Below are positions 1,373-36,271 of a stretch of DNA of 64,000 nucleotides, in pieces. The notes beneath the pieces were generated by a model, which did no database searches, was not told the DNA's origin, and saw only the letters and a program-made list of their open reading frames with translations. How positions within the stretch are numbered: position 1 is the stretch's first letter; each line of letters begins with the position of its first letter. Source of the stretch: Bacteroidota bacterium (GTDB lineage: Bacteria > Bacteroidota > Bacteroidia > Palsa-965); contig JABDCB010000005.1 in NCBI GenBank assembly GCA_013288325.1, positions 16,484 to 80,483 of the forward strand, written 5' to 3'. Made by a program: the position numbers and the translations under genes.

Positions 1373-1487
1373 GATTTAGAGTAAAGATAAGCCTATTAAA
1401 GAGCGAGATTAAAAAAAATACGTAATTTCGGAGATTAAGGTTCCCTAAGGCTTACTGCCAGATAGGGAGTCTTGTACCAACAACTCT

Positions 1488-4804: not shown

Positions 4805-4812
4805 ACCACATT

Positions 4813-5763: not shown

Positions 5764-5770
5764 TGGATTC

Positions 5771-6751: not shown

Positions 6752-6756
6752 GTGAA

Positions 6757-7077: not shown

Positions 7078-7165
7078 TTAGTACTTCATAAGATAGCCAC
7101 CAATTATTGATTTCCCCTGCAAATTCTGGTCTAAATGTATTATAAATGATAAATAGTGTGTATTT

Positions 7166-7612: not shown

Positions 7613-7760
7613 TTCCATTCAGTATGCGGCAAAGCCTGTAATTCCTTCCAGGAAGCACAAATCTTATCCCTCCTTTGAATAATATGATCCGCATTATTTA
7701 GACTTGTCGTGATGTCATATTCTTACTGTTTGTCTTTCTGTTAATTTCCTCTGAATTTAG

Positions 7761-7768
7761 TACCTTTG
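7761..7768 (+). promoter_or_regulatory. Bacteroidota -7 box (TAnnTTTG) for sucA
   Basis: TACCTTTG lies 22 nt upstream of the ATG at 7790. This favours 7790 as the sucA start over the TTG at 7766. Confidence 0.5.
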
Positions 7769-7789
7769 CCCTTCAGAAAAAGACGAAAT

Positions 7790-10622: not shown

Positions 10623-11885
10623 ATGGCTACCATTGAAATGAAAGTGCCAAGTCCTGGAGAGTCAGTTACCGAAGTAACTATTTCACGGTGGATCGTGAAG
10701 GATGGAGATTATGTTGAGAAGGATCAGGAGCTGGCTGAAATTGAATCGGACAAAGCAACACTTACAATTAACGCTGAAGATAATGGTGCTGTTAAACTTC
10801 TTGTGCCCGAGGGGGAGACAGTAAAGGTAGGTCAAGTAGTCTGTTCCATTGATACATCAGTAAAAGGGGAGACTAAGAAGGCTGCTGCGGTGCCAGGTGT
10901 GGTGAAAGAGGGCGCTGGAGCAGGGACCTCAGGCGCTAAAATGGTGGAGAAAGAAGCTGTTTCAAGAAAGGTGATGTCAGATGGCTACAGTAATGGCATC
11001 CCTTCGCCGGCTGCTAAAAAGATAATGGAGGAAAATAAAATCTCTTCTGAAAAGGTTAGTGGCACCGGTAAGGGAGGAAGAATTACCAAAGGAGATGTGC
11101 TGGGAGCCCTTAGCAACGGATTTGATGCAAGGCAATTAAAAAGCTGGAATGGAGGCCGCCAGGAGGATCGTCAGAAAATGTCTCCTTTGCGAAAAAAGCT
11201 GGCGCAGCGACTCGTTGCTGTAAAAAACACAACAGCTATGCTTACAACCTTTAATGAGGTTGATATGAGTCAGATATATGCCCTTCGAGCAAAATACAAA
11301 GATCGCTTTAAAGAGCAATATGGAACAAGCCTTGGCTTTATGAGCTTTTTCACAAAGGCTGTTACAGAGGCTCTTTTTCAGTTTCCTGCAGTGAATGCAA
11401 TGATTGATGGAGAAGAACTCATCTATCATCAGTATTGTGATATAGGGATTGCCGTAAGTGCCCCTAAAGGCTTAGTTGTGCCAGTTCTTAGGAATGCTGA
11501 AGGTATGTCATTAGCTGAAATTGAAGCAGAAATAAAGTTGCTTGCTATAAAGGCAAGAGACAATAAAATTGAACTGAAGGATATGGAAGGGGGAACCTTT
11601 ACGATCACAAATGGGGGTGTGTTCGGTTCTTTGATGTCTACTCCTATTATCAATCCTCCTCAAAGTGCGATTCTTGGAATGCATAATGTGGTGGATCGGC
11701 CTGTAGCTGTTAATGGCCAGGTGGTAATACGGCCTATGATGTATGTTGCGTTGTCATATGATCATCGCATTATCGACGGCAGAGAGAGTGTAGGGTTCCT
11801 TGTTAAGGTGAAAGAAATGTGCGAAAATCCGTTAAAGATGTTATTTAAAGGTAAAGATCCTCAGGATATATTGCTGGGGCTATAA
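10623..11885 (+). CDS. sucB: dihydrolipoyllysine-residue succinyltransferase (E2 of the 2-oxoglutarate dehydrogenase complex)
   Basis: Lipoyl domain 'ESDKATLTI', E3-binding region, and catalytic '[12 protein letters not shown]'. Confidence 0.95.
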
Positions 11886-11940
11886 GCATACATAGGAACT
11901 AGCTATTATTTGACCTAAGGTATACTATTAATAAAAAGCG

Positions 11941-12420
11941 ATGGCTGAATCAATTCATGTACAAGGCTTAGATCGTAAAGCGCAGTACGAAAGCCTTTTT
12001 CCTCAGATCCTTGCTCTTGTAGAAGGTGAAACTGACAGCCTGGCCAATATGGCCAATGTAATAGCTGCCCTTAAGTTCGGAATGGAATTTTTCTGGGTAG
12101 GAGTTTATTTTGTGAAGGAGAATGAGTTGGTTTTGGGCCCTTTTCAGGGACCAGTAGCATGTACACGTATAGCTAAAGGAAAGGGAGTATGTGGATATGC
12201 TTATGCTATTGGGCAAACCGTACTTGTAAAGGATGTTGATCTTTTTCCCGGGCATATAGCTTGCAGCTCTGAATCGAAATCAGAAATAGTAGTCCCTCTG
12301 TTCAATAAAAATAAGGAAGTAATCGGAGTACTTGATATCGATAGTGTGAAGCTTTCGGATTTTGACGATACGGATAAATATTATCTGGAGAAGGTGGCAT
12401 TATTATTAAGTAGCTTTTGA
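11941..12420 (+). CDS. msrC: GAF domain protein (free methionine-R-sulfoxide reductase family)
   Basis: 159 aa resembling YebR/fRMsr ('GKGVCG', 'HIACSSESKSEIVVP'). Confidence 0.75.
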   Translation: MAESIHVQGLDRKAQYESLFPQILALVEGETDSLANMANVIAALKFGMEFFWVGVYFVKENELVLGPFQGPVACTRIAKGKGVCGYAYAIGQTVLVKDVDLFPGHIACSSESKSEIVVPLFNKNKEVIGVLDIDSVKLSDFDDTDKYYLEKVALLLSSF

Positions 12421-12436
12421 TTCGTACACCTGGTTC

Positions 12437-14167
12437 ATGAAATATAACAGAATTCCTTTTTTGCGTTTCCATCTTCCCTTTTTTTTCTGTTGTCTTTTTA
12501 GTTGGTTTAAAATCAGCTCAGTCAGGACTCTTCGGCCTGTTTTTTATTATTGTCTTTTCCTGATGTTTTTTGCTTCATGTGCACAGATTGTAAAGCCATC
12601 CGGCGGACCGCAGGACAAAAAGCCGCCCCATGCTAATTCTTATACTCCTGATAGTGCAGCTGTGTTTTTTAAATCAAAAAAAGTCTCGATCGTATTTGAT
12701 GAATTTATTCAGTTAAAAGACCTGAATAGTCAATTGGTTGTTTCGCCCCCTATGGAGAGAACTCCGGACATAAAAGTAAAGGGGAAAGTGCTTGAAATTG
12801 TGTTTCGTTCTCCTTTGAAAGATAGTACGACCTACACAATTAGTCTTGGTTCTGCTGTCGTAGACCTTCATGAAAGTAATGCCGTTCCCGATTTTAAATA
12901 TGTTTTTTCAACTGGCAGTTATGTTGATTCACTATGGATTAGCGGTACAATTACCAATGCCTTTACACAACTTCCTGAAAAGGGTGTCATGGTGATGCTT
13001 TATAATAAGCTAGATGATTCGATACCTTATAAATCCGTGCCAGCTTATTTTGGGCGTACAAGCGCATCCGGAGCTTATCGTATTAATCATATAAAGCCAG
13101 GAATATACAAGGTGTTTGCCCTGAGGGATCAGAACGGGAACTACAAATATAACCCTGGTGAAATGATTGGGTTTCTGGAAAAGAACATTGAATTGAATAA
13201 TAGTCAGGATAATGTAAATATGCTTGTATTTAAAGAAGAATCAAGCACGCAAAAACTGAAGAGAGCTTATCAGAATGGCTACGGCAAAATCGTTCTTACT
13301 TTTGCTTCTGCAGCGGAAAGGATACACCTTCGTTCAATACGTAAGGACGCGGAACCCATTGGAACTTCTTTTGTTGAGCGAAACGGCAAAGCTGATACCC
13401 TTACCTATTGGTTTGTACCTCCTGCCGCAGACTCCTTATTTATGGAAGTAGGTGATGATAACAAAGTGTACGATACGCTTCGTTATAAGCTCGTTGGCAG
13501 GGATAAGTTTTTGAGCCAGCATAAAACGGAGAAATACCTATTAAAAATCCAAAGTAACGTATCGGGCATGCACCTCTTCGATCTCAATTCCCAGCTTCGT
13601 TTGAGTTTCTCAGCACCGGTTCCGGGGGGTATAAAAGATGCTTCCCGAATGTTTCTTACAGAAGATACTTTGAAGGATAATCTTTTCACAAATGGGTCAT
13701 TTAATTTTACCGATGATATCAAGCGAACCTTGAGCTGGAAATATGATAAAGGAAGTTGGAAGGAGAGCCGGAAATATCATTTGTTGATTCTCCCCGGGGC
13801 GTTCTCAGATATGTACGGTTTTACCAATGACACATTAAAAACGGATTTTAAAACTACAGAACTTCGATTTTATGGAACGCTTAAGCTAAATGTAACCGCG
13901 GCACCTGGCCATTATATACTGCAATTGCTGGATGATAAGGAGGCTATAGTGCGGGAAGAATCTTTCAATAATAATCATGAGTTTTATTTTGAGTATTTGT
14001 CACCAATGAACTATAAGGTGCGATTGATTACTGATAGTAATGAAAATAAAAAGTGGGACACAGGTAACTACCTTAAAAAGAAGCAAGCGGAAGCGGTAAT
14101 TTATTACAAGGATCCTATTACGATTCGGTCAAATTGGGATCAGGAAACTGTTTGGATTGTGAAATAA
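12437..14167 (+). CDS. Ig-like domain lipoprotein, function unknown
   Basis: Lipobox-like 'FFASC' followed by 'PSGGPQDKKPPH', typical of SbsA/Big_5-type N-termini. 576 aa. Confidence 0.6.
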   Translation: MKYNRIPFLRFHLPFFFCCLFSWFKISSVRTLRPVFYYCLFLMFFASCAQIVKPSGGPQDKKPPHANSYTPDSAAVFFKSKKVSIVFDEFIQLKDLNSQLVVSPPMERTPDIKVKGKVLEIVFRSPLKDSTTYTISLGSAVVDLHESNAVPDFKYVFSTGSYVDSLWISGTITNAFTQLPEKGVMVMLYNKLDDSIPYKSVPAYFGRTSASGAYRINHIKPGIYKVFALRDQNGNYKYNPGEMIGFLEKNIELNNSQDNVNMLVFKEESSTQKLKRAYQNGYGKIVLTFASAAERIHLRSIRKDAEPIGTSFVERNGKADTLTYWFVPPAADSLFMEVGDDNKVYDTLRYKLVGRDKFLSQHKTEKYLLKIQSNVSGMHLFDLNSQLRLSFSAPVPGGIKDASRMFLTEDTLKDNLFTNGSFNFTDDIKRTLSWKYDKGSWKESRKYHLLILPGAFSDMYGFTNDTLKTDFKTTELRFYGTLKLNVTAAPGHYILQLLDDKEAIVREESFNNNHEFYFEYLSPMNYKVRLITDSNENKKWDTGNYLKKKQAEAVIYYKDPITIRSNWDQETVWIVK

Positions 14168-14207
14168 GTCGGGCCTGTTTTATTACATTTATTCATAAAT
14201 TAGCCTT

Positions 14208-15176
14208 ATGTCAAGAATACTTACAGGAATACAAAGTACCAATGTGCCACATCTGGGAAACCTTCTGGGGGCCATTCTTCCTGCGATAGCCCTTTCTCAG
14301 AAACCCGGTAATGATTCTCTTTTTTTTATTGCCGATCTGCATACTCTTATTTCCGTAAAGGATGCAAAATTCAGAAAAGAAAGCACGTATGCGGTGGCTG
14401 CTACCTGGCTGGCAATGGGATTTGATACCGATAGAAACATTTTTTACCGTCAAAGTGATGTTACGGAGGTATGTGAGCTGACATGGTATTTAAATTGTTT
14501 TACCCCTTATCCTATGTTGGCGAATGCCCATTCTTTTAAGGATAAAGCATCCCGCTTGAGTGATGTAAATGCGGGATTATTTACCTATCCGGTGTTAATG
14601 GCTGCTGATATTCTGCTGTATGATGCCAATTATGTGCCGGTGGGAAAAGACCAGCTTCAGCATTTAGAAATGGCCCGTGATATTGCCAGAACGTTTAATA
14701 ATGTTTATGGCGAAACGTTCGTTGTCCCGGAACCGATGATTGATGAACGGGTTATGATTGTACCTGGTATCGATGGACAGAAGATGAGTAAGTCATATAA
14801 CAACTTCATTAATATTTTCCTGCCTGAAAAGGAGTTGAAAAAAGTAGTAATGAGTATTGTTACCGATGCCACCCCGCTGGAGTCCCCTAAAAATCCAGAT
14901 ACCTGCAATGTATTCGCGATTTATAAGCTGCTCGCTTCACCTGAACAGATTGTAGAAATGGAAGCGAACTACCGTAAGGGAGGGTATGGATATGGGGCTG
15001 CTAAAACGGCACTATACGATCTGATTATGCAACGTTTTGGTAAGGAAAGAGATTTGTTTCAGCGCTATATGGATGATCGATCCTTACTGGATGTACATTT
15101 GAGTAAAGGAGCGGAAAAAGCCAGGGTAATTTCCGGGAGGGTGTTAAAAAGGGTCAGAGAAAAGTTGGGGTATTAG
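14208..15176 (+). CDS. trpS: tryptophan--tRNA ligase
   Basis: HIGH-like motif 'PHLGN' and 'KMSKS'. 322 aa. Confidence 0.95.
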   Translation: MSRILTGIQSTNVPHLGNLLGAILPAIALSQKPGNDSLFFIADLHTLISVKDAKFRKESTYAVAATWLAMGFDTDRNIFYRQSDVTEVCELTWYLNCFTPYPMLANAHSFKDKASRLSDVNAGLFTYPVLMAADILLYDANYVPVGKDQLQHLEMARDIARTFNNVYGETFVVPEPMIDERVMIVPGIDGQKMSKSYNNFINIFLPEKELKKVVMSIVTDATPLESPKNPDTCNVFAIYKLLASPEQIVEMEANYRKGGYGYGAAKTALYDLIMQRFGKERDLFQRYMDDRSLLDVHLSKGAEKARVISGRVLKRVREKLGY

Positions 15177-23695: not shown

Positions 23696-25216
23696 TTATA
23701 CGAGAATATTTCCATCCATTTCTGCCGGTATAGGCAACCCAAGAATATGAAGAATAGTTGGGGCCAAATCTCCCAACTTACCATCCTTTATACTTCTATA
23801 GCCTTTGTCAATTAGAATGCAAGGAACCGGGTTCATACTATGCGCAGTATTAGGAGTCCCATCGGGATTAATCATATAATCTGCATTGCCATGGTCGGCA
23901 ATTATTATAAAAGAATATCCAGCCATTATGCCGGCTTCTACAATCTGTTTAAGACATCCATCCACACATTCCAGAGCTTTTACAACAGCTGGATAAACTC
24001 CTGTATGTCCTACCATATCCGCATTGGCAAAATTCAGACAGATAAAATCGGTCTTCCCTTCATTCAGCTTTGGAAGAATTGCATCCGTAATAAGTTTTGC
24101 GCTCATCTCCGGCTGTAAATCATAAGTGGCTACTTTGGGTGAAGGGATCAGGATTCGCTCTTCACCGGGAAATGTTTCCTCCCTGCCACCATTGAAAAAG
24201 AAGGTAACATGAGGATATTTCTCTGTTTCTGCTATCCGTATTTGTTTGCATCCGTTTTCTGAAAGGACTTCCCCAAGCGTATGGTGCAGGTTATCTTTCT
24301 CGTACAACACTTTAATCCCTTTAAAGCGTTCATCGTATGGGGTCATCGTTATGTAATGGAGAGGAATGGTTTTCATGCCCAATTCAGGCATATCCGTCTG
24401 CGTTAAAACCTGAGTTATTTCCCGACAACGATCGGTCCTGAAATTAAAACAAATCACTACATCCCCTTCCTGAATCGTAGTGAGCGCATTTCCTTCCTTA
24501 TCCGTAATGACTGACGCTTTTATAAATTCGTCGCTTATCTGTTGTGTATAAGAAGCTGCTATTGCCTCTGTTACGGTATTAAAACGAGTACCTTTCCCGT
24601 GTACCAATAAGTCGTAGGCCATCTTAACCCGTTCCCAGCGTTTATCTCTGTCCATAGCATAATACCTCCCTATGACTGAGGCAATCCGGGCCGAGAGAGG
24701 TCTGATATGTTGTTCCAGCTTCTCCAAAAAACCTTTTCCACTATGTGGATCAGTATCTCGTCCATCTGTAAAGGCATGTATAAACACATTTTTTATTCCT
24801 TGGGCGTTGGCTATATCACATAGCTTATGCAAATGTTCCTGAGAAGCATGAACCCCTCCATCGGAAACAAGACCCATTAAGTGGACTTGTTTCTGTTGCA
24901 GTTTCGCATAAGCTAAAGCTTCCAGTAACACAGGGTTCATATCCAGTTTTCCCTGTTTTACGTCTTTGTTGATTCGTACAAGATCTTGGTATACAACTCT
25001 TCCGGCACCAATATTCATATGGCCCACTTCACTGTTTCCCATTTGTCCGTCAGGTAATCCAACCTGTTCACCAAACGTTCTGAGTTTGGAGTGCGGATAA
25101 GTACTCATCAGGCTTTTGAAAAACGGAATGTTTGATGAGGCCATTGCATCCGAACGGGAGCCATCTCCCAGGCCCCAGCCGTCAAGGATGAGTAATGCCA
25201 GTTTTTTATTGTTCAT
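23696..25216 (-). CDS. gpmI: 2,3-bisphosphoglycerate-independent phosphoglycerate mutase
   Basis: 506 aa with 'LLILDGWG', 'MGNSEVGHMNIGAGR' and 'ADHGNA'. Confidence 0.95.
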   Translation of the reverse strand: MNNKKLALLILDGWGLGDGSRSDAMASSNIPFFKSLMSTYPHSKLRTFGEQVGLPDGQMGNSEVGHMNIGAGRVVYQDLVRINKDVKQGKLDMNPVLLEALAYAKLQQKQVHLMGLVSDGGVHASQEHLHKLCDIANAQGIKNVFIHAFTDGRDTDPHSGKGFLEKLEQHIRPLSARIASVIGRYYAMDRDKRWERVKMAYDLLVHGKGTRFNTVTEAIAASYTQQISDEFIKASVITDKEGNALTTIQEGDVVICFNFRTDRCREITQVLTQTDMPELGMKTIPLHYITMTPYDERFKGIKVLYEKDNLHHTLGEVLSENGCKQIRIAETEKYPHVTFFFNGGREETFPGEERILIPSPKVATYDLQPEMSAKLITDAILPKLNEGKTDFICLNFANADMVGHTGVYPAVVKALECVDGCLKQIVEAGIMAGYSFIIIADHGNADYMINPDGTPNTAHSMNPVPCILIDKGYRSIKDGKLGDLAPTILHILGLPIPAEMDGNILV

Positions 25217-26202
25217 GAGGTAGCAGGTAAAACAAATTCAAAGATACTTCCTTTGGGTATATTATTTTTAACGGTAAGTGTCCCTCCGTGCATCACGGAA
25301 AGGTATTTGGCAATATAAAGTCCGAGTCCGGTACCTTGTGTGCTTCTTGTTTCTTCATTACCGGCACGATAAAATTTATTAAATATTAATGCCTTGTCTT
25401 TTTCACTAATCCCGATTCCCTCATCTGCAACTGAAAGTTTTATGCCCCCCGATGTTTGCTTCAGACACACTTTAACAGGTGTTCCCGGAGGAGAATATTT
25501 CAATGCGTTTTCGCAAAGGTTAAGAACAATGGAAGGGAAATTGAATCGATCTATTTCTGCTATCACCCCAGGCTGGATATCGAGTTGTAATATTCTTTGA
25601 CCATGCCCCTGGGTTTGAAACTTATTTGTCAGACTTTGTAACAGCTCACTTAAGTTTGTTTGTTCCCTGTGAATACGAAACGAGCTGTCATCAATTCGGG
25701 CTGCAAGCAGAATGTTTTCTACAAGTGCATTCAAACGGTCTATATCAATCATCGCCCCTTGAATAATTTCTTTTTGTTTCGCTTTTTCAAGGTCACGGAC
25801 TGCAAGCGTTTCCATTTGAAGCCGGGCTGAAGCTAGTGGCGATCGTAATTCATGGGTAATACTGAGAATAAAATTATTCTGCTGCCGGTTAAGGGCATTT
25901 TCTTTGTTAAAAGAGGAACGTGTAATGAGAATTCCTGAAATCAACAATACAAAGAAAACGGAGCCTTCTCCTGTTATCATAACCCACCGGGTATGAAGTT
26001 TTTTTTCCAGGTCATTGCCCAGAGCAATTGTTTCCTGCAGCCCGGATGATTTTGCCACATTCAGCTCCGTTTTGAGATGGTAAATCTCTGCATTTAGTGA
26101 AAACAGCAGATAAGACCACCAACAGAACTGGAAAACAACATACACTACCAAAATATAAAAGCCAAGTAAGGGCCGGCGCTTTTTACCGGAAAAGATTGAC
26201 AT
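25213..26202 (-). CDS. sensor histidine kinase (two N-terminal TM helices, HisKA, HATPase_c)
   Basis: H-box 'ITHELRSPL', N-box 'LCENALKYS', G1 'DEGIGI' and G2 'GTGLGL'. The stop overlaps the gpmI start (ATGA). Confidence 0.9.
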   Translation of the reverse strand: MSIFSGKKRRPLLGFYILVVYVVFQFCWWSYLLFSLNAEIYHLKTELNVAKSSGLQETIALGNDLEKKLHTRWVMITGEGSVFFVLLISGILITRSSFNKENALNRQQNNFILSITHELRSPLASARLQMETLAVRDLEKAKQKEIIQGAMIDIDRLNALVENILLAARIDDSSFRIHREQTNLSELLQSLTNKFQTQGHGQRILQLDIQPGVIAEIDRFNFPSIVLNLCENALKYSPPGTPVKVCLKQTSGGIKLSVADEGIGISEKDKALIFNKFYRAGNEETRSTQGTGLGLYIAKYLSVMHGGTLTVKNNIPKGSIFEFVLPATS

Positions 26203-26820: not shown

Positions 26821-28434
26821 ATGAAAAAATTCATTACCTTTTTTGTGTCTTTGTCAGCCGTTTTTAGCCTTGGAAAAGGAGCTTGTAATGCCCAGTCATC
26901 GGTTCCAACGCCGGTTAGTCCTTTATATGCCGCTGATATTACAGTAGAGTCTAATAATTTAGCCAACCAACGTAACGTAAAAATAGCTGCCGCCTCCAAT
27001 GGATGGCTTTTTGCAGCTTATCTGGTAAATGATTCAGTTTCCGGAAAAGGCGGTGTTGTGGTACGCTATTCCAAAAACGGAGGTATCAACTGGATGCCTT
27101 TCAATAATTATCCTTATTTCAGGCATTCTGAATACAAAGCATGTGATATCACGGTATCAGGTGCTGATACAAATCACCTGAATGTATTTGTTGGAGATGT
27201 TCGCATGGATCTGACAACCAAAAAATACGAAGTAGAAGTACAACGTTATATCAAAAATACAGCGTATCCATCGACAGAAGTATTCTTTCAGCAATTGGAT
27301 ACTAATCAGGTATATGATATAGCCCTGGCAAATAATTACCGTCAGATAACCAGCAAAGACTCCCTGTATAATGTGGGACTTATCTATTCCCATCGGGGAA
27401 TAGGAAAGGACTCGATTGTATTTGCAACGACAGAAAAGAAGCTGGCTAATAAATTCGGAAAGCCTGTTGTAATTGCCAATGCACCTCATTACCGCAAAGT
27501 GTCGCTGGCATATATGCATAGCAGTAGTATCCACGGCGCTTATTGTGCTGCATGGGAATTGCTTGATACTACATACAGCACCGTTGGTCATATCCAGTTT
27601 TCAAGAACAATAAGAAATCTTGATTCTGCCTGGAATAAACCAGTTTACCTGGATTCTCTTCTTTCGGCGACAACGGATAAAGTACGTAGCCCAAGTATTT
27701 CCTGCCAGTATAATGCTGCCGATAACGACAGTGCCAGTGCCAGCATTGCAGTATCGTATGATTATTACAATGGAAGCAATTTTGATATAATCGGAAGCTA
27801 CAACATGAGAGGTGATTCCACTAATTTCTGGAATTCATTTGTTATCGATAGCACGGGTCATAATGAAATACAGAGCAAACTGAGTTATGACCCTTTTGCC
27901 AATAATTTTGTGACCACTTTTTATGATTCCACATCAGGTGCATTACAGTATATGAGTCAGTCGGCTAATTTTACTACTCCCCGTACCTGGACCGTAAACA
28001 ATACCCAATACAACAACAATACGGCCAATCTGAAAGCGCCATGGCCGCAAGTGGTTATGAATCCATCTAACAACAAAGCATTCTTTGCATGGGTCATGGA
28101 TCCTTCCAACAATAATGGGGTGGTACTATGCGATGGAGAATATCTGTTTACCGGGATTTCAGAGCAAAGCATGAGCGGCTTTGATGTTTTAACCCCATAT
28201 CCTAATCCGGCCAATAGCGGGGCTTACCTGCCTGTTTCCAGTGATATTCCGGTAGTGCTTACCATTTCATTATACAATGCGATGGGGCAACTTATGAATA
28301 CAAGTACCGAACACATCGGTGGGGGCATTCAGTTGCTGGAACTAAATACGTCTACTTATGCTGCCGGTGTTTATTTCTGTCATATTGCAACAGCAGAAAA
28401 AACAATAACCCGTCGTTTGGTGGTTGAACACTAA
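26821..28434 (+). CDS. secreted protein with T9SS type A C-terminal sorting domain
   Basis: Signal peptide, a BNR-like 'YSKNGGINW', and a C-terminal domain of about 80 aa ('TPYPNPANSGAYL...GVYFCHI...RRLVVEH'). Confidence 0.75.
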   Translation: MKKFITFFVSLSAVFSLGKGACNAQSSVPTPVSPLYAADITVESNNLANQRNVKIAAASNGWLFAAYLVNDSVSGKGGVVVRYSKNGGINWMPFNNYPYFRHSEYKACDITVSGADTNHLNVFVGDVRMDLTTKKYEVEVQRYIKNTAYPSTEVFFQQLDTNQVYDIALANNYRQITSKDSLYNVGLIYSHRGIGKDSIVFATTEKKLANKFGKPVVIANAPHYRKVSLAYMHSSSIHGAYCAAWELLDTTYSTVGHIQFSRTIRNLDSAWNKPVYLDSLLSATTDKVRSPSISCQYNAADNDSASASIAVSYDYYNGSNFDIIGSYNMRGDSTNFWNSFVIDSTGHNEIQSKLSYDPFANNFVTTFYDSTSGALQYMSQSANFTTPRTWTVNNTQYNNNTANLKAPWPQVVMNPSNNKAFFAWVMDPSNNNGVVLCDGEYLFTGISEQSMSGFDVLTPYPNPANSGAYLPVSSDIPVVLTISLYNAMGQLMNTSTEHIGGGIQLLELNTSTYAAGVYFCHIATAEKTITRRLVVEH

Positions 28435-28456: not shown

Positions 28457-28492
28457 AAAACCGGGGTGATTCACTTCCGGTTTTGTTTTTTT
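28457..28492 (+). terminator. intrinsic terminator
   Basis: aaaaccgg (28457-28464) pairs with ccggtttt (28477-28484) around a 12-nt loop. A T-rich tail follows. Confidence 0.7.
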
Positions 28493-28534
28493 AGAGAAAC
28501 GTTCATTTCATTCCTCATTCTTAATAAAATCAAG

Positions 28535-29479
28535 ATGGCTACCCATTGTATTGTTATCCACGGAGGTGCAGGAACGATCCTTCGCAGTAGTATGAATCCG
28601 GAAATGGAAGCAGCCTATCGGAGCGGGCTTAAAGCTGCTCTCGAAAAGGCAGATGAGCTACTCCATAAAGGGGGAAGTGCACTTGATGCCGTTGAATTGG
28701 CTGTGTCTGTCATGGAAGATAATCCCTTGTTTAATGCAGGGAAAGGCAGTGTATTTACACACGATGGAAAAAATGAAATGGATGCATCCATTATGTGTGG
28801 TAATACACTCAAGGCAGGAGCAGCGTCTGGTTTGATGCATATAAAAAACCCTGTTCGTCTGGCCCGTGAAATCATGGACCATTCAGAGCATGTCTTCTTA
28901 TGTGGCAAAGGAGCAGAAGAATTTGCTCAAAGCCGACAGATGCAAATGGAGCCCGAAAGTTATTTTTATACCAAACAGCGCTATGATCAGTTGCTGGAAA
29001 TACGTGATACCGGGAAAACTCAAATGGACCATTCGGCTCCTGCTGAAAAACCTTCGGAGAAAAAGTTTGGTACAGTTGGAGCTGTAGCGCTTGATACGTA
29101 TGGTAATCTGGCAGCGGCAACTTCTACCGGCGGAATGACGAATAAGCGCTTTGGAAGGGTTGGAGATACCCCCATCATCGGAGCCGGCACTTATGCCAAT
29201 AATAATAGTTGTGCAGTATCCTGTACAGGCCATGGAGAGCTTTTTATACGTGCGGTTGTAGGGCACGATGTGGCTTGTATGGTAGAATATGGAAAACGGT
29301 CGTTACATGAAGCCTGTGATGAAGTAGTAAATAAAAAGCTGGTCAAGTTGGGAGGAGAAGGAGGATTGATAGCCATAGACCGGCAGGGAAATGCCGAAAT
29401 GATTTTTAATTCCGAAGGGATGTACCGGGGCATTAAAAAGGCAGACGGGGATTTCCAGATTGCTATTTACCGGGACTGA
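28535..29479 (+). CDS. iaaA: isoaspartyl peptidase / L-asparaginase (Ntn hydrolase)
   Basis: 'IVIHGGAG' and the autoprocessing site 'GTVGAVALD'. Start set at the ATG at 28535, after the terminator. Confidence 0.9.
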   Translation: MATHCIVIHGGAGTILRSSMNPEMEAAYRSGLKAALEKADELLHKGGSALDAVELAVSVMEDNPLFNAGKGSVFTHDGKNEMDASIMCGNTLKAGAASGLMHIKNPVRLAREIMDHSEHVFLCGKGAEEFAQSRQMQMEPESYFYTKQRYDQLLEIRDTGKTQMDHSAPAEKPSEKKFGTVGAVALDTYGNLAAATSTGGMTNKRFGRVGDTPIIGAGTYANNNSCAVSCTGHGELFIRAVVGHDVACMVEYGKRSLHEACDEVVNKKLVKLGGEGGLIAIDRQGNAEMIFNSEGMYRGIKKADGDFQIAIYRD

Positions 29480-29488
29480 AATGATAGA

Positions 29489-30364
29489 TTACTTGATCGG
29501 GTGCTCTTGCGGAGCAATTGCATAAAATTTACGCTCCTGCAAATGATAAAAATTCCCTTTTGCCATTACATGAACCACCATATTTTCAATAGAGATAGGA
29601 GCGCCTTCGGGTAAATCGGCAATATTGGAATAACGGATATTATGTCCGTCAAAAATAAGGATAAGTCCCGATCCGATAGCCTCCATACGATCTCCATCGG
29701 TAATCAGCACTCCCGTATCTTCTCCGAGACCAATACCTATACATCCCGGATTGCTTGCCACGGCTTGTGCTAAACGGCCGAACCGCCCTCTGGTAACGAA
29801 GTGGGAATCGATAATAACATCTTTAATAAAAGCAAGCCCGGTCGTAATCTTTACCTCCCCTTTTTGCAAAGCACCGGTACTGCTACCTTGGTATATCATT
29901 GTATTCGACATAGCCATTGCTCCGGCACTGGTACCTGCAATGACAAAATTTTCGTGCATATAACGTTCTGTGAGCACTTTCAGGAATTCAGTACCTCCGA
30001 AAATCATGCTGAGGCGAAGCTGGTTGCCGCCTGTAAACATCACTCCGTCGGCTTTGCGTATCCTTTCGGTATATTCCGGAAGCAGCACATCATTCCGATT
30101 TTTGATATGAATCACTCCTACCTTATTGCATCCCAGTTTGCCGAATGCCTGAATATAATTTTCACCTACTTCTTCCGGTATTACGGAAGCGGTTGTGATC
30201 ACTTCCACCAATGAATCCGGGCCTTTCATTTCGGAAAGGATACGTTTCAGTATTCCAAATTCAAAGAAATTCAAATCGACTTTCTGTGTAAAGTTTGGCT
30301 CTATGCCAGTACCTTTATCTTCACTCCCCCCGATAGAAATCAGCTTTCCTTTAGGAATACTCAT
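29489..30364 (-). CDS. cphB: cyanophycinase (S51 peptidase), no signal peptide
   Basis: 291 aa with 'ISIGGSEDKG', 'FTGGNQLRL' and 'AGTSAGA' (nucleophile Ser). Confidence 0.88.
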   Translation of the reverse strand: MSIPKGKLISIGGSEDKGTGIEPNFTQKVDLNFFEFGILKRILSEMKGPDSLVEVITTASVIPEEVGENYIQAFGKLGCNKVGVIHIKNRNDVLLPEYTERIRKADGVMFTGGNQLRLSMIFGGTEFLKVLTERYMHENFVIAGTSAGAMAMSNTMIYQGSSTGALQKGEVKITTGLAFIKDVIIDSHFVTRGRFGRLAQAVASNPGCIGIGLGEDTGVLITDGDRMEAIGSGLILIFDGHNIRYSNIADLPEGAPISIENMVVHVMAKGNFYHLQERKFYAIAPQEHPIK

Positions 30365-30502
30365 GGCAAACAGATTGATTTAGGAACAAAATTAACAGAA
30401 TAGCAAGGATTCCTTAATTCCCCAGCTTACAATTATCACATTATTTTGAACATCCAATGAAAGCCGGAGAATAATCCGTACATTCATCAAAATCCTAGCG
30501 CT

Positions 30503-33175
30503 ATGAAGATAATTGAAATCCGTGCTATGCGCGGCCCGAACTACTGGTCGATATGGAGACATAAACTGATCGTGATGAAGCTGGATATAGGCGGTTATGA
30601 AGAACGGCCTACCGACAAAATAGACGGATTTTCTGAGCGTTTGGAAAAGATGTTCCCAAGCATGTACGAACACCGCTGTTCGGAAAATTGCCTCGGGGGA
30701 TTTTTCTCCCGGGTAAAGGAAGGTACCTGGATAGGACATGTTATTGAACATATAGCCCTGGAAATACAAACTCTGGCAGGAATGGATACTGGTTTTGGCC
30801 GTACCCGATCAACCGGAGAAAGGGGGGTATACCACGTCGTATTTTCCTATATGGAAGAAAAAGTCGGCATTTTTGCTGCCCGATCGGCCGTTAAAATTGC
30901 ACAAGCATTGGTAGATGGCCATCCTTATAACCTGGAAGAGGATATTCAAACTATGCGTGAAATACGGGAGGAAGAACGTTTGGGTCCTAGTACCGGATCA
31001 ATTGTTCAGGAAGCGATGAACAGGGGGATTCCATATATACGGTTAAACCGTCATTCCCTGGTGATGCTGGGGTATGGTGTAAACCAGAAACGGATTCAGG
31101 CTACTGTCTGCAGCAGCACCAGTAATATTGCCGTTGATCTGGCCTGTGATAAAGAAGAAACCAAATCCATGCTGGAAGCAGCATCTATCCCCATCCCCAA
31201 AGGCATTATTACGAGTATAGAAGAAGATGTGGAAGGGGCCGTGAAGAAGCTTGGATTTCCACTCGTGATAAAACCGGTAAATGGAAATCATGGAAGAGGA
31301 GCTACCATCAATATCAAAACGCTGGAGCAGGCCATAGAAGGATTTCAGGTGGCTAAGAAAATATCCAGAACGGTCATCATAGAAAAATTTGTGACCGGTT
31401 TCGACTATCGTTTGCTGGTAATCAATTACAAATTGGTAGCCGCTGCCAAACGAACACCCGCGGCGGTAACGGGTGATGGAAAATTAACGATAGGTGAGCT
31501 GGTAGAGAAAGTGAACAGCGACCCGCGCAGAGGCTATGGTCATGAAAAAGAGCTTACCAGTATCAAGATTGATGAGATGACCTTAAATATCCTCCGCGAT
31601 AATGGGCTTACCATTGATTCCATACTTGGAAAAGACGAAGTGCTGCATCTTAAAGCTACCGCTAATCTGAGCACCGGAGGAACAGCCACCGATGTAACAG
31701 ATATGGTGCATCCGTATAATGTGTTCATGGCCGAACGCATTGCCCGTATTATAGGTCTGGATATCTGTGGTATTGATATTATGGCTCCTGATCTTACCAA
31801 TCCGATTAACGAAAATGGGGGTGCTGTACTGGAAGTAAATGCAGGTCCCGGGTTCCGTATGCATATAGCTCCCACAGAAGGGTTACCGCGCAATGTAGCC
31901 GAACCGGTGATAGATATGCTTTATCCTCCGGGAAGCCCTGTTAAGATTCCGATTATTGCGGTTACAGGTACCAATGGAAAAACCACTACCACCCGTTTGG
32001 TTGCACATATCATGAAAACAGTGGGATATAAAGTGGGTTTCACCACTACGGATGGAATTTATATTCAGAATCGGATGATGGAACAAGGTGATTGTACAGG
32101 GCCGGTAAGTGCCGAGTTTGTACTCAAAGACCCAACGGTTGATTTTGCCGTGCTTGAATGTGCCCGAGGAGGTATTCTGCGTGCAGGCCTGGGTTTCCAT
32201 AATTGTGATATCGGAATTGTTACCAATGTTGCAGAGGATCACCTGGGTTTAAAAGATATCCATACCCTGGAAGATCTGGCACGGGTAAAGGCCGTGGTAC
32301 CCGAAAGTGTATTGCCGGAAGGGTATGCCATCCTGAATGCAGATGATGACCTGGTATATGCTATGGCCAGAGGACTGGATTGCAAGGTGGCTTACTTCAG
32401 TATGGATGAAAACAACCCCCGGATCAAAAAGCATTGCCGTAACGGAGGCATTGCTGCTGTGGTAGAAGATGGTTATATAAGTATTTGCAAAGGCACCTGG
32501 AAAATAAGGATAGAAAAAGTGGTGAACATACCTCTTACTTTTTCCGGCAAAGCCATTTTTATGATCCAGAATATATTGCCGGCGGTATTATCAGGATTTC
32601 TGAGTAATGTAAAAACGGAAGATATTCGTCTGGCATTGGAAACATTTATTCCTTCGCCGACACAAACTCCCGGCCGAATGAATCTGTTCCAGTTCAAGAA
32701 ATTCCAGGTAATGGTGGATTATGCACACAATACTGCTGGATTCCAGGCTCTGGCCAAGTTCCTTGAAAAAACAGATGCGAAACCTAAAGTGGGCATTATT
32801 GCCGGAGTCGGCGACAGAAGGGATGAAGACATCGTTAGTCTTGGTACCCTGGCGGCACAAATGTTTGACGAGATTATTATTCGTCAGGATAAAAACCTGA
32901 GAAACCGTACCGGGGATGAAATCATACGCCTGATTGTAAAAGGGATAGAAACAGAAAATGCAGCCATCCCATATAAAATTATTCCTTCAGAGGCAGAAGC
33001 CATACAATATGCCATCAAACATGCCAAGAAAGGTTCTTTTATAACTATTTGCAGTGATGTGGTTCCGGATGCGCTGAATGCCATAATGAAATATAAGGAA
33101 GAGGATGCGGAATTCGAAATGCTGATAGAAGATATTCCCAATCAGCACGGAACAATACCGTCGCTCGGAAAATAA
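30503..33175 (+). CDS. cphA: cyanophycin synthetase
   Basis: 890 aa. 'MKIIEIRAMRGPNYWS' N-domain, an ATP-grasp domain, and a Mur-ligase-like domain containing 'GTNGKTTT'. Confidence 0.95.
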   Translation: MKIIEIRAMRGPNYWSIWRHKLIVMKLDIGGYEERPTDKIDGFSERLEKMFPSMYEHRCSENCLGGFFSRVKEGTWIGHVIEHIALEIQTLAGMDTGFGRTRSTGERGVYHVVFSYMEEKVGIFAARSAVKIAQALVDGHPYNLEEDIQTMREIREEERLGPSTGSIVQEAMNRGIPYIRLNRHSLVMLGYGVNQKRIQATVCSSTSNIAVDLACDKEETKSMLEAASIPIPKGIITSIEEDVEGAVKKLGFPLVIKPVNGNHGRGATINIKTLEQAIEGFQVAKKISRTVIIEKFVTGFDYRLLVINYKLVAAAKRTPAAVTGDGKLTIGELVEKVNSDPRRGYGHEKELTSIKIDEMTLNILRDNGLTIDSILGKDEVLHLKATANLSTGGTATDVTDMVHPYNVFMAERIARIIGLDICGIDIMAPDLTNPINENGGAVLEVNAGPGFRMHIAPTEGLPRNVAEPVIDMLYPPGSPVKIPIIAVTGTNGKTTTTRLVAHIMKTVGYKVGFTTTDGIYIQNRMMEQGDCTGPVSAEFVLKDPTVDFAVLECARGGILRAGLGFHNCDIGIVTNVAEDHLGLKDIHTLEDLARVKAVVPESVLPEGYAILNADDDLVYAMARGLDCKVAYFSMDENNPRIKKHCRNGGIAAVVEDGYISICKGTWKIRIEKVVNIPLTFSGKAIFMIQNILPAVLSGFLSNVKTEDIRLALETFIPSPTQTPGRMNLFQFKKFQVMVDYAHNTAGFQALAKFLEKTDAKPKVGIIAGVGDRRDEDIVSLGTLAAQMFDEIIIRQDKNLRNRTGDEIIRLIVKGIETENAAIPYKIIPSEAEAIQYAIKHAKKGSFITICSDVVPDALNAIMKYKEEDAEFEMLIEDIPNQHGTIPSLGK

Positions 33176-33272: not shown

Positions 33273-33286
33273 TTTAATATTAACTA

Positions 33287-33324
33287 CTTCCATAACCCCG
33301 CGCTTAAGCGCGGGGTTATGGAAG
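33287..33324. terminator. perfect 38-bp GC-rich palindrome (likely cphA terminator or protein-binding site)
   Basis: cttccataaccccgcgc, then ttaa, then gcgcggggttatggaag: 17-bp arms with no mismatch. Confidence 0.6.
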
Positions 33325-33335
33325 CCAACCTGAAA

Positions 33336-33516: not shown

Positions 33517-34212
33517 TTGAATGCAATATTGGTTGATGATGACGAGTTCTCGTCTCTGGCAACGGCTCATTTAATAGAGCATGTAAATTATATCAATCTG
33601 CTTAAAACCTGCAGTGGTCCCATGGAGGCTGCAGAAGCATTGATGAATGAGGAGATAGACCTTCTTTTTCTGGATGTAGAAATGCCGGAAATGAATGGGA
33701 TGGAGCTTATTAAAAGCCTTTCCGCGCCTCCTCTTATTATTTTAACCACTTCACATGCCCGCTATGCCCAGGAAGCGTATGACTATGATGTGGTGGACTA
33801 TCTTTTAAAACCTATTGAGCTGCATCGCTTTATAAAGGCAGCAGCCAAGGCAAAGGAGCGGTATGATCATCGTCAGGAGGAGCAAGGTGAATTTACGGAA
33901 GACTATATCTTCGTCCGCAAAAATGCTGTTCTGAGTAAATTGGTTATCAAGGATATTCTCTGGATCGAAGCCCTGGGCGATTATGTTACCATTAATACCT
34001 TTGATAAGAAATATACCCTTCACCTTACTCTTAAATCCCTGGAACGCAAATTGCCCCCAGAGCGTTTTGTCAGAGTTCATCGCTCCTTTATCGTTCAGAT
34101 TGAGCATATTAATACCATCGATGATTCTGTTATCTCCATTAACAATAAACCAATCCCGGTAGGAGCCTTGTACCGGGAAAGCTTTCTGAAAAGGCTTAAT
34201 GTATTAAGCTGA
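33517..34212 (+). CDS. LytTR-family response regulator (REC plus LytTR DNA-binding domain)
   Basis: 'ILVDDDEF', 'LLFLDVEMPEMNG', 'DYLLKPI' and a C-terminal LytTR domain ('FVRVHRSFIV'). A TTG start is required because an in-frame stop lies at 33487. Confidence 0.88.
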   Translation: MNAILVDDDEFSSLATAHLIEHVNYINLLKTCSGPMEAAEALMNEEIDLLFLDVEMPEMNGMELIKSLSAPPLIILTTSHARYAQEAYDYDVVDYLLKPIELHRFIKAAAKAKERYDHRQEEQGEFTEDYIFVRKNAVLSKLVIKDILWIEALGDYVTINTFDKKYTLHLTLKSLERKLPPERFVRVHRSFIVQIEHINTIDDSVISINNKPIPVGALYRESFLKRLNVLS

Positions 34213-34355: not shown

Positions 34356-34865
34356 ATGACGGTGAAAAAGCAGCCATCCAGGCAGAATCTGATATTTATT
34401 GTGGAGGATAATGAGCTGTATTCCTTTATGTTGGAGTATATGCTATCAGAAGTCCACATGGTACGATGCCTTAGGTTTGAAAAGGGAGAAGAATGTATCC
34501 GCAACCTCGCGCTTGAACCCGATATGATTATTCTGGATTATGTCCTGCCGGGAATTGATGGTCTGGATACATTCCGGAAAATAAAGCAGGCAAAACCGGA
34601 AGTGCCGGTAGTAGTACTGACCGGCAATTTTGACTCGCATGCAGCTCAGCATTTTATGGAAGAGGGTGTATATGATTATATGCTGAAGGAAGAAAGTGCA
34701 GCCGGTAGAATCAAATCGCTGGTGGAATTTGTGATGGGAAAGAAAAATAAAGAAGAAGAAATTAAAGAAGAACAGGAAGGACGACAACGGATTGTTCGAA
34801 TAAGTCTACTGGTGTTTTTCGTTTTTGCACTTGCAATTAGCATTACGTGGCTTATAATTGGATGA
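34356..34865 (+). CDS. receiver-domain protein with acidic linker and C-terminal TM anchor
   Basis: REC motifs 'IFIVEDNE', 'IILDYVLPGIDG', 'VVVLTG' and 'DYMLKEE'. Then 'KNKEEEIKEEQEGRQR' and the terminal hydrophobic 'ISLLVFFVFALAISITWLIIG'. Confidence 0.85.
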   Translation: MTVKKQPSRQNLIFIVEDNELYSFMLEYMLSEVHMVRCLRFEKGEECIRNLALEPDMIILDYVLPGIDGLDTFRKIKQAKPEVPVVVLTGNFDSHAAQHFMEEGVYDYMLKEESAAGRIKSLVEFVMGKKNKEEEIKEEQEGRQRIVRISLLVFFVFALAISITWLIIG

Positions 34866-34896
34866 AACAGGATGAGACATTTTAACGCTATCTGTC

Positions 34897-35403
34897 ATGA
34901 AACAGAACGAGGATGTGACACGGGTGTTCATCGTAGACGACGACCCCGTTTTCAGCAAGGCATTGGAAACCTACCTGAAAAAAGAAGTGCCAAACGTGGA
35001 GGTAGCCAGTTTCTCCAATGGAGAGTCTTCCTTGCATGAACTACACCGTTCGCCGGACCTGCTGTTGCTGGACTACCGTCTCGACTCCGAATTTGCATAT
35101 GCCTGGGATGGGCTTCAAATATTAAAAAAGATTAATAATATCGACCCCGGATTAAGTGTAGTGGTGATGTCGGCAAAGGAAAGTGTGGATACGGCTATGA
35201 ATTGTATCAAGATGGGGGCCATGGAATATGTGGTAAAAAACGAACAGGCATTTCCAAAAATAAAAGGAATTGTTTCCGAATTAAAACAAGAGATAAAAGA
35301 GGAAAAAGAGGAGGAAGAACTGGAAGAGAAAAGTAACATGCCTGCCTGGTTAGGACTTCTGTTGCTGCTGATACTTCTTATCTTTTTTCTTTATCGTTTA
35401 TAA
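34897..35403 (+). CDS. receiver-domain protein with acidic linker and C-terminal TM anchor (second copy of this architecture)
   Basis: REC motifs 'VFIVDDDP', 'LLLLDYRL', 'VVVMSAKE' and 'EYVVKNE'. Then 'KQEIKEEKEEEELEEK' and the terminal 'AWLGLLLLLILLIFFLYRL'. Confidence 0.85.
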   Translation: MKQNEDVTRVFIVDDDPVFSKALETYLKKEVPNVEVASFSNGESSLHELHRSPDLLLLDYRLDSEFAYAWDGLQILKKINNIDPGLSVVVMSAKESVDTAMNCIKMGAMEYVVKNEQAFPKIKGIVSELKQEIKEEKEEEELEEKSNMPAWLGLLLLLILLIFFLYRL

Positions 35404-35464
35404 GATGTATGGCATAGCAGGCAATGCAATTTTTGGTATGAATATATTCAAAGGAGAACGGCCT

Positions 35465-35824
35465 ATGAAAATCTTAATAGTAGATGATGATCCGCTTACT
35501 CTGGAAGCCATCCGGTGTTGTCTGGTTGCAGGAGGTAATGAAGTGATTGCTGCCAGCAGCGGGTTTGATGCCATCGGTATAGCGAAAAACGAACACCCGG
35601 ATCTGATTATCAGTGATATTATGATGCCTGAAATGTCGGGACTCAGTTTACTGTGTTTATTAAAACAAGTATACTTCAGCCGGATACCGGTGATTATTAT
35701 TTCATCGCTTGATAAGGCCGATGTTATTCTTTCTTCGCTTGGATTAGGGGCCGATGATTTTATAAGTAAGCCTATTGATTTTGACCGGCTTTCATCACGA
35801 GTAAAGAGTTACTACCTGGATTAA
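35465..35824 (+). CDS. single-domain (CheY-like) response regulator
   Basis: 'MKILIVDDDPLT', 'DLIISDIMMPEMSG', 'IIISS' and 'DFISKPI'. The ATG at 35465 is preferred over 35405. Confidence 0.88.
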   Translation: MKILIVDDDPLTLEAIRCCLVAGGNEVIAASSGFDAIGIAKNEHPDLIISDIMMPEMSGLSLLCLLKQVYFSRIPVIIISSLDKADVILSSLGLGADDFISKPIDFDRLSSRVKSYYLD

Positions 35825-35896: not shown

Positions 35897-36271
35897 ATGG
35901 AAACGCAAAAAATAATTGATCTGAGCTATCTGCGCCAGTTGGCCAATGGAAGTGACGAGTTTATGCAAACGATGATCAGCATTTTTATTGCTGAAACACC
36001 TGCCGCGTTAGATAATATGGAGAAAAGCTGGGAACGTAACGACTGGTCCGGCATCAAGGCTATGGCTCACAAAATGAAACCTTCTTTCGGGTTTATGGGT
36101 ATAGCGAGCATGAAGGATGTGATTACAGAATTGGAAGCAGATGCAGAACGGGGAGCGTATCCGGAAGTAATAAGAGAAAAAATAACCCGTATAAAAGCAG
36201 CCTGCACGGCTGCAATAGTGGAGCTCAGAACAGAGCTGAAAAAGTATCAGAAATCCGCTTCCCGTATTTGA
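35897..36271 (+). CDS. Hpt (histidine phosphotransfer) domain protein
   Basis: 124 aa, four-helix-bundle-like, with the phosphorylatable His in 'AHKMKPSFGFMG'. Confidence 0.85.
   Translation: METQKIIDLSYLRQLANGSDEFMQTMISIFIAETPAALDNMEKSWERNDWSGIKAMAHKMKPSFGFMGIASMKDVITELEADAERGAYPEVIREKITRIKAACTAAIVELRTELKKYQKSASRI

Follow-up and report, generated by a model that had tools for sequence, protein, structure and literature searches.

The window analysed here, a stretch of 64,000 nucleotides from a Bacteroidota bacterium (GenBank assembly GCA_013288325.1, contig JABDCB010000005.1, positions 16,484 to 80,483 of the forward strand), contains a tight cluster of genes that lie on one strand. They encode a LytTR-type response regulator, two receiver proteins here called A and B, a soluble CheY-like single-domain response regulator and a stand-alone Hpt phosphotransfer protein (Table 1). 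A and B are separated by 31 nt, and no convincing terminator was found between the genes of the cluster. A preliminary description made from the DNA letters had reported A and B as proteins of 169 and 168 residues, each with a complete REC domain, a charged linker and a single hydrophobic helix at the C-terminus. Both open reading frames were found where it had placed them and with these lengths, and the linker and tail peptides that it quoted were correct, as were the nucleotide positions of the tails (34800-34862 and 35344-35400). Here we explore the two proteins, the family to which they belong and their genomic context. We propose, with moderate confidence, that a tail anchor holds A and B, as single-domain response regulators, at the inner face of the cytoplasmic membrane, where they would serve as terminal acceptors of a branched His-Asp-His-Asp phosphorelay.

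The last 19 to 21 residues of both proteins are uncharged and strongly hydrophobic. The C-terminal 19-mers show a mean Kyte-Doolittle hydropathy of 2.67 for A and 2.54 for B, and the summed Hessa apparent insertion energies of the tails are -3.56 and -2.93 kcal/mol, respectively. The best 19-mer within the REC domains gives +9.5 or +11.5 kcal/mol, and no other segment falls below +9 kcal/mol. Hydropathy scans revealed no hydrophobic N-terminal segment in either protein, the N-termini (MTVKKQPSRQN in A and MKQNEDVTRV in B) being polar. Among the 49 non-overlapping open reading frames of at least 100 residues in the window, A and B are the only ones with a lone C-terminal transmembrane (TM) segment. 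The TM assignment rests on the two hydropathy scales, on conservation and on the helices in AlphaFold models.

Orthologues were collected by word-indexed searches, which identified eleven for A (46-67% identity) and seven for B (47-63%). All 18 have a tail with a negative insertion energy, followed by zero to five residues, and its sequence drifts. Since the tail is kept in all eleven A and all seven B orthologues, it is neither a chance feature nor the mis-called end of an open reading frame, and the loss of the tail in relatives that the preliminary description had considered was not encountered among these orthologues. Tails of the A lineage are preceded by a basic residue and show a conserved small-xx-W motif near the end of the helix. 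In the B lineage most of the seven orthologues have a P-x-x-x-G start and a terminal K, R or H, the exception being P0023, in which Pro and basic residue are missing.

We infer an N-in/C-out topology for A and B. Over the whole family the net charge is +2.3 for the 12 residues that precede the TM segment and +0.45 after it, which fits an N-in orientation, as does the absence of an export signal. The linkers are more diverse. In the B lineage the linker is net acidic in all eight members, ranging from -2 to -8 over 22 residues with -6 in B itself, and seven of these eight (P0017-P0023 plus B, P0023 being the exception) have a basic residue after the TM segment. Linker charge is mixed in the A lineage, with a median of +2 for the family. 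The preliminary description had presented the linkers as highly acidic or charged; a charged helical linker is indeed found in both proteins, but strong acidity is limited to the B lineage and the juxtamembrane segment of the family is basic.

Response_reg was the sole Pfam match of both proteins, covering residues 13-114 of A (E=2.2e-20) and 10-116 of B (E=3.5e-20) with PF00072 scores of 73.3 and 72.7 bits against a cut-off of 30.2. Profile searches of Pfam, NCBIfam and PDB gave nothing besides REC. No Pfam or NCBIfam model was found for the linker or the tail, an LPXTG_anchor match of B, discussed below, being set aside as compositional. The combination of a complete REC domain, a charged linker and a single C-terminal hydrophobic helix is hence borne out for both proteins by Pfam, hydropathy and Hessa energies. 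The phospho-switch is complete in A (E17, D18, D61, T89, Y108 and K111) as well as in B (D14, D15, D59, S92, Y111 and K114). All 121 aligned family members have the acceptor Asp, the Lys and the aromatic switch Tyr, and each carries S or T at the Ser/Thr position.

A cis-Pro directly after the receiver Lys (K-P) is typical, albeit not obligatory, for receiver domains. In this family the residue at that position is S (37), G (36), N (28), E (17), D (1) or Q (1), and Pro occurs in none of the 121 members. The usual K-P is thus replaced by K-[SGNE]-E-x-A-F in 120 of the 121 members, while K-P is kept in the operon's own LytTR regulator and CheY-like protein, the latter without a hydrophobic tail. 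The tail-less relatives P0024-P0026 carry the same non-Pro motif. The family signature can be written as GA[YF]DY..K[SGN]E.AF, followed by approximately 33 residues and the C-terminal TM segment; the distance from the Lys to the TM segment has a median of 33 residues with an interquartile range of 30-34 in the aligned family. The B lineage shows, in addition, a conserved insertion of five to six residues (LDYRLDSEFAYAWDG) in the beta3-alpha3 loop straight after the acceptor Asp. This insertion, absent from the A lineage, adjoins the surface that normally contacts the phosphodonor.

Structural models were made by AlphaFold2, using the 121-sequence alignment for B and a shallower alignment for A. 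B is predicted to form a canonical (beta-alpha)5 fold with five strands and five helices (mean predicted local distance difference test, pLDDT, 89.2; predicted template modelling score 0.77), in which alpha5 starts at residue 118 and runs unbroken to residue 167, with a tail pLDDT of 90-93. The model of A has one continuous helix from residue 115 to 168 and a tail pLDDT of about 92. The modelling that the preliminary description had suggested hence gave for both proteins a receiver fold and a single helix that reaches unbroken into the tail. The top 50 Foldseek matches, with TM-scores up to 0.90 on the target, are all receiver domains except for one AI-designed response-regulator-like protein. 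By both sequence and fold the nearest solved structures are the Aquifex NtrC1 receiver (1zy2, 1ny5 and 4l4u) and LuxO (3cfy); 1zy2 was matched with E=3.6e-22 over profile positions 8-141, and 4l4u was found by Foldseek with E=4.6e-10.

Proteins that combine REC with the C-terminal TM tail, hereafter REC-TM proteins, are widespread. A scan of GTDB species representatives kept 80 loci, of which 46 were examined. REC with a C-terminal TM segment was found in 28 of these, all from Bacteroidota (Bacteroidia metagenome-assembled genomes, Prolixibacteraceae, Marinilabiliales, Tangfeifania, Mariniphaga, Sunxiuqinia and Draconibacterium), and matches from outside this phylum have no tail. When 1.84 billion cluster representatives were searched exhaustively with a profile, 457 proteins were found at E<=1e-30; the best 150 include 56 short single-REC proteins, 40 of which have the tail, with three more borderline cases. 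A profile made from 52 diverse members yielded 3001 proteins at E<=1e-15. The tail is present in 91, plus six borderline cases, of the 101 new top matches of this search, with a median of six residues after the TM segment. The named sources among the profile matches are Bacteroidia, Bacteroidota, Chitinophagales and Flavipsychrobacter, as labelled on metagenome-assembled genomes, and every taxon-named REC protein of 160-185 residues with a C-terminal TM segment is from Bacteroidota. Judged from these searches, which the preliminary description had proposed, the architecture is that of a large Bacteroidota family of hundreds to thousands of proteins that extends well beyond this pair. Variants were seen as well among P0030, P0057, P0098, P0147 and P0155. 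One of them is a REC-TM-REC protein, or a fused gene call, of 376 residues, and several of 208-217 residues end in two hydrophobic helices, a hairpin, instead of one.

A and B share 33% identity over the REC domain, and in a tree of REC domains both have dozens of other members nearer to them than their partner in the pair. This tree is a rough neighbour-joining reconstruction from a tail-enriched sample and was used for the paralogy of A and B and the scatter of tail-less members only; the latter appear scattered among tailed ones. Low identity and tree positions together indicate that A and B are anciently diverged paralogues, and not the result of a recent duplication. The claim that the shared design is conserved therefore stands. 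The two genes stand in tandem in loci L004 and L007; in L008 the arrangement is a triple.

Members of the family are annotated as 'response regulator', 'hypothetical protein' or 'DNA-binding NtrC/OmpR family', and in JGI/IMG A is entered as 'DNA-binding NtrC family response regulator' and B as 'two-component system response regulator AtoC'. The NCBIfam models for NtrC, LuxO and AtoC match the receiver part only and far below their cut-offs, the NtrC model over its first 120-140 positions. An identity as DNA-binding NtrC or AtoC was rejected: the proteins have 168-169 residues and consist, as to known domains, of REC only. Since neither AAA+ nor HTH is present, the JGI names are wrong.

The genomic context was studied in a small sample, picked for long contigs, of 15 contexts plus the Prolixibacteraceae group. 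An Hpt is encoded in the same cluster in the window and in 11 of the 14 other loci outside the Prolixibacteraceae (12 of 15 contexts), either as a stand-alone protein or at the C-terminal end of a PAS or H-NOX hybrid kinase without TM segments. At the syntenic spot of the window Hpt, L004 encodes a TM-less hybrid kinase of 943 residues (REC-PAS-PAS-HisKA-HATPase-REC-Hpt). The window Hpt is 50% identical to residues 829-941 of this kinase, and its H57-K-M-K motif is kept there. L007 has a stand-alone Hpt, as in the window. As the window and L007 have no more than the Hpt part, the hybrid kinase would have been lost or moved in these two or, conversely, fused in L004.

Hybrid kinases accompany REC-TM genes in L004, L037, L088, L089 and L091-L095. 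None of these nine adjacent kinases has a TM segment, and six start with an extra N-terminal REC. The module type recurs in distant loci (L037 and L088-L096), where family members are 27-36% identical to A. A LytTR response regulator gene adjoins the REC-TM genes in L004, L088, L089, L092, L094 and L096; an orthologue of the CheY-like gene lies 3' of them in L004, L007 and L008, and a similar soluble REC is found in L088, L089 and L093. The Hpt, CheY-like and LytTR proteins, which the preliminary description had mentioned as neighbours, are hence recurrent companions across distant loci. With its H-NOX gene, L088 may provide one branch of the family with an input that senses gas (NO or O2).

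Prolixibacteraceae and Marinilabiliales (L009-L034, e.g. L015) have a single orphan REC-TM gene, with a conserved tail of the form SNKRYKxG-TM-YPxKF. It is flanked by rpsB-tsf-pyrH-frr upstream, a divergent gene for a SPOR-domain protein, and genes for an S41 (Ctp-like) peptidase and RsgA downstream; no kinase or Hpt was found within 8 kb. These homologues were dropped as a functional guide, the housekeeping neighbourhood being uninformative on signalling partners.

Table 1. Features of the window and of other loci with REC-TM genes. Coordinates are those of the respective stretch.
Location	Feature	Coordinates	Strand	Remarks
Window	LytTR-type response regulator	33517..34212	+	REC and LytTR DNA-binding domain, 231 residues; Pfam LytTR 5.6e-20, Response_reg 6e-18
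Window	REC-TM protein A	34356..34865	+	REC, then alpha5 and charged linker to residue 148, TM tail 149-169
Window	Asp61 codon, predicted phospho-acceptor of A	34536..34538	+	Invariant in 12 of 12 A-family members, and in 52 and 121 diverse members
Window	TM tail of A	34800..34862	+	ISLLVFFVFALAISITWLIIG; zero residues after tail, RQRIVR directly before
Window	REC-TM protein B	34897..35403	+	REC, acidic helical linker, TM tail
Window	Asp59 codon, predicted phospho-acceptor of B	35071..35073	+	Invariant in 121 of 121 aligned family members
Window	Insertion in beta3-alpha3 loop of B	35074-35110		Residues 60-72
Window	Acidic linker of B	35275-35337
Window	TM tail of B	35338..35400	+	MPAWLGLLLLLILLIFFLY, then RL
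Window	Soluble CheY-like single-domain response regulator	35405..35824	+	139 residues (or 118 from ATG 35468); Pfam Response_reg 1e-26
Window	Stand-alone Hpt phosphotransfer protein	35897..36271	+	124 residues; Pfam Hpt 2.1e-10
Window	Small membrane histidine kinase	25213-26202	-	329 residues
Window	Por_Secre_tail protein (type IX secretion system cargo)	26821-28434
Window	Isoaspartyl peptidase/asparaginase_2	28466-29479
Window	Cyanophycinase	29489-30364	-
Window	Cyanophycin synthetase	30503-33175
Window	Palindrome	33286-33325		ACTTCCATAACCCCGCGC TTAA GCGCGGGGTTATGGAAGT
L004	Hybrid kinase with Hpt	11591-14422
L007	Stand-alone Hpt	9444-9818
L015	Orphan REC-TM	7989-8504
L088	H-NOX, HNOBA-GAF-PAS hybrid kinase with Hpt (1108 residues), LytTR, REC-TM, CheY-like	869-6760
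L089	LytTR, hybrid kinase with Hpt, three Pfam-less genes, REC-TM, Usp, CheY-like			Tandem-Usp gene at 6534-7427
L090	Hpt, REC-TM, Pfam-less gene (173 residues), TPR kinase
L091, L095, L037	Hybrid kinase, Hpt, REC-TM
L092, L094	LytTR, REC, PAS kinase, hybrid kinase with Hpt, two to three REC-TM genes, Usp, further receivers			Tandem-Usp gene at 7355-8224 (L092) and 7175-8434 (L094)
L093	PAS kinase with Hpt, REC-TM, CheY-like
L096	Dense cluster with two REC-TM genes

Some further observations concern the surroundings of A and B. Two start codons are conceivable for the CheY-like gene: the ATG at 35405 lies one base past the stop codon of B (35401-35403), the ATG at 35468 gives a typical MKILIVDDD start, and gene calls on sister contigs give 128 or 119 residues. 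Tandem-Usp genes stand among the REC-TM and CheY-like genes of L089, L092 and L094, and none is present in the window cluster. A complete cyanophycin set (28466-33175) lies directly 5' of the regulator cluster. A functional link between the two was considered and rejected: the synteny is found only in the window, L004 and L007, and is absent from L008 and the distant loci. Being confined to close relatives, it is taken as inherited gene order, not functional coupling. Between the two groups of genes, 111 nt past the stop of the cyanophycin synthetase gene and 190 nt ahead of the LytTR gene, lies a perfect palindrome with an 18-bp stem, which occurs once in the window. It may serve as a bidirectional terminator or as a binding site for a protein.

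The model that we propose is as follows. In A and B, alpha5 would run on through the linker of approximately 20 residues and enter the bilayer as one rigid helix. The relay would begin with the autophosphorylation of a soluble hybrid histidine kinase of the PAS or H-NOX kind, which would hand the phosphoryl group to its own REC domain; from there it would pass to Hpt, here the stand-alone protein, with the kinase encoded outside the window. The phosphorylated Hpt (Hpt~P), the probable direct phosphodonor of the receivers, would then be shared among the LytTR regulator, which acts on transcription, the soluble CheY-like protein, A and B. The transfer from Hpt to A and B is deduced from this arrangement and presumably direct. 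Phosphorylation would switch the alpha4-beta5-alpha5 face of the anchored receivers, which would probably alter homodimerisation or heterodimerisation of A with B and thereby control a membrane-resident target. The relay would thus gain a fast membrane output beside the transcriptional one, and this branch of the signalling is probably directed at the membrane, not at DNA. Since the switch Tyr, the Ser/Thr and the spacing between Lys and TM segment are conserved, a regulated output is favoured over a passive sink. A bolder version of the model, which we put forward only tentatively and regard as rather doubtful, is that phosphorylation changes the dimer geometry and that this change is relayed by the length-constrained alpha5-linker-TM helix, such that the paired helices would themselves gate or assemble a machine of the membrane or envelope. 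If true, such a machine might be a transporter, a component of secretion or gliding, or an envelope enzyme, and Bacteroidota would have a widespread route with an inverted textbook topology, in which the sensor kinase is soluble and the effector-receiver is embedded in the membrane.

Several observations weigh against the proposal that A and B are anchored acceptors of the relay. The TM sequences are weakly conserved, which suits a passive anchor as well as a signalling helix. The acidic linker of B with a basic residue past the TM segment is contrary to the local positive-inside rule. The pLDDT of the B linker falls to 61, and the continuous alpha5-TM helix may be what AlphaFold gives by default when a monomer is modelled. 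As to the relay, the 64-kb window contains no hybrid kinase, its sole kinase being the small membrane histidine kinase listed in Table 1, and no Hpt is found nearby in L087, L008 and approximately 25 Prolixibacteraceae homologues. Finally, no recurring membrane-protein gene accompanies the family in the contexts examined.

A and B might instead be phosphate sinks parked at the membrane, which drain Hpt~P by competition and fast autodephosphorylation and thereby tune the share that reaches the LytTR regulator, the anchor merely keeping them aside or limiting their diffusion. Four receivers for one Hpt, the lack of an output domain and the two to three tandem REC-TM copies in L008, L092, L094 and L096, as in a dosage-type buffer, agree with this. 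Yet a sink has no need for the switch Tyr, the Ser/Thr or a fixed distance between Lys and TM segment, all of which are conserved or tightly constrained, and the anchor, superfluous for a sink, has been retained across hundreds of lineages. Given also that orphan copies exist without a relay gene nearby, we consider a sink possible, though not likely. The anchored receivers could also act on the kinase itself, either by bringing the soluble hybrid kinase or Hpt to the membrane, a recruitment already suggested in the preliminary description, or by feeding back on it in the manner of DivK with PleC and DivJ; in that case the location or activity of the kinase, and not a separate membrane target, would be the output. 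That all nine neighbouring hybrid kinases lack TM segments and six carry an extra N-terminal REC speaks for such a role, but the window and L007 kept A, B and Hpt though the kinase gene is gone from the locus, and no kinase is found near the Prolixibacteraceae orphans, which makes it an unlikely explanation of the pair.

Other alternatives dispute the anchor. The hydrophobic C-terminus could be an interaction or oligomerisation helix, a degradation tag or an artefact of gene calling, in which case the proteins would be soluble. Although the TM call comes from hydropathy scales and AlphaFold helices and the tail sequence is poorly conserved, this is very improbable in view of 19-21 uncharged residues with a hydropathy of 2.5-2.7 and a negative Hessa energy, compared with +9 to +15 kcal/mol elsewhere in the proteins. 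Moreover, hydrophobicity has been kept despite sequence drift in 18 orthologues and about 130 distant members, and the flanking basic residues are typical of TM helices. Tail anchors of Escherichia coli insert at far lower hydrophobicity, with a grand average of hydropathy of 1.0-1.6 (PMC6794478). The tail might, lastly, be a C-terminal sorting signal of the LPXTG/sortase or exosortase kind on an exported protein, as the last 44 residues of B score 17.7 bits on the NCBIfam model TIGR01167 (LPXTG_anchor), with a cut-off of 15.9. The matched part of this short, compositionally biased model is the hydrophobic stretch alone, and A has no such match; B has MPAWLG in place of an LPXTG motif (P-x-[LI]-[LI]-G in orthologues) and no N-terminal signal peptide, and a REC domain needs cytoplasmic phosphodonors, so that we give a sorting signal next to no credence. 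The match of B is an example of a short model that misfires on tail anchors.

Tail-anchored receivers that accept phosphoryl groups from a shared Hpt would be of interest since control by output-less receivers is among the less understood parts of two-component signalling. The REC-TM family is large and easily recognised, has a built-in localisation signal and a fixed geometry, and stands beside soluble hybrid kinases of the PAS or H-NOX kind. In Bacteroidota, where signalling has been little studied, it suggests a branch of phosphorelays that is directed at the membrane and does not act through transcription, and a design that inverts the textbook layout, with the kinase soluble and the receiver in the membrane. 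Its recognition corrects the systematic mis-annotation as 'DNA-binding NtrC/OmpR family response regulator', and the signature GA[YF]DY..K[SGN]E.AF with its spacing of approximately 33 residues and TM segment could serve as a database model. REC and tail anchor are each well known; the combination, the family signature and the circuit context appear undescribed. No description of C-terminally anchored receivers was found in the full-text literature searched, which did not cover the classic censuses of response regulator architectures, such that an earlier passing mention is possible. The sole membrane-anchored regulator met in that literature has an N-terminal MetOD3 module and is represented by four Methanoregula proteins (PMC5847659).

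Like A and B, the single-domain regulators CheY, Spo0F, DivK and CpdR consist of REC with a full phospho-switch, have no enzymatic or DNA-binding output, are expected to signal via protein-protein contacts and are often terminal or intermediate acceptors of phosphorelays. They are soluble proteins of about 120 residues, whereas A and B lack K-P and add a helical linker of approximately 20 residues and a TM anchor. Within the same phylum, the soluble GAF hybrid kinase RgzA of Flavobacterium johnsoniae, which has an internal REC and a C-terminal Hpt, has been studied experimentally and hands phosphate through that Hpt to the adjacent output-less receiver RgzB (bioRxiv 10.64898/2026.07.01.735801). 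As described, this circuit has the layout seen in L004, L089, L091, L092 and L094. RgzB is presented as a CheY-type single-domain regulator, with no mention of an anchor (bioRxiv 10.64898/2026.07.01.735801).

Tail-anchored proteins of bacteria include Flk, DjlC, ElaB/YqjD/YgaM and TssL of E. coli and 20 candidates in Streptomyces coelicolor (PMC6794478, PMC3087755). They share with A and B a single TM domain at the extreme C-terminus and the absence of a signal peptide, have the N-in/C-out design that is predicted for A and B, and differ in the cytoplasmic domain, which in A and B is a REC domain. In E. coli, tails that are far less hydrophobic still insert in the N-in/C-out orientation, while those of very high hydrophobicity rely on the signal recognition particle (PMC6794478). 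The running text of the S. coelicolor study, its candidate table aside, mentions no regulator or two-component protein (PMC3087755). The membrane-anchored MetOD3-REC-MetOD2 regulators of Methanoregula were described in the census by Galperin et al. 2018 (PMC5847659). Their anchor is an N-terminal domain of approximately 180 residues, unrelated to that of A and B, and is found in four proteins of one archaeal genus that have a separate output domain.

The receivers of NtrC1, DctD and LuxO are the best matches in sequence and fold, and their alpha5 likewise extends past the REC core, leading to an AAA+ ATPase and HTH where that of A and B leads to a TM helix. In NtrC1 and DctD the extended alpha5 forms a regulated dimer interface. 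By analogy, this dimerising helix may be a lead as to how REC-TM proteins act. As to the circuit, the H-NOX/HnoK networks of Shewanella and Vibrio have one cytoplasmic kinase that feeds several receivers with different outputs. The Hno regulators known to us, with EAL, HTH and HD-GYP outputs, are soluble and none is membrane-anchored. Locus L088, with its H-NOX, HNOBA hybrid kinase, LytTR, REC-TM and CheY-like genes, recalls these networks.

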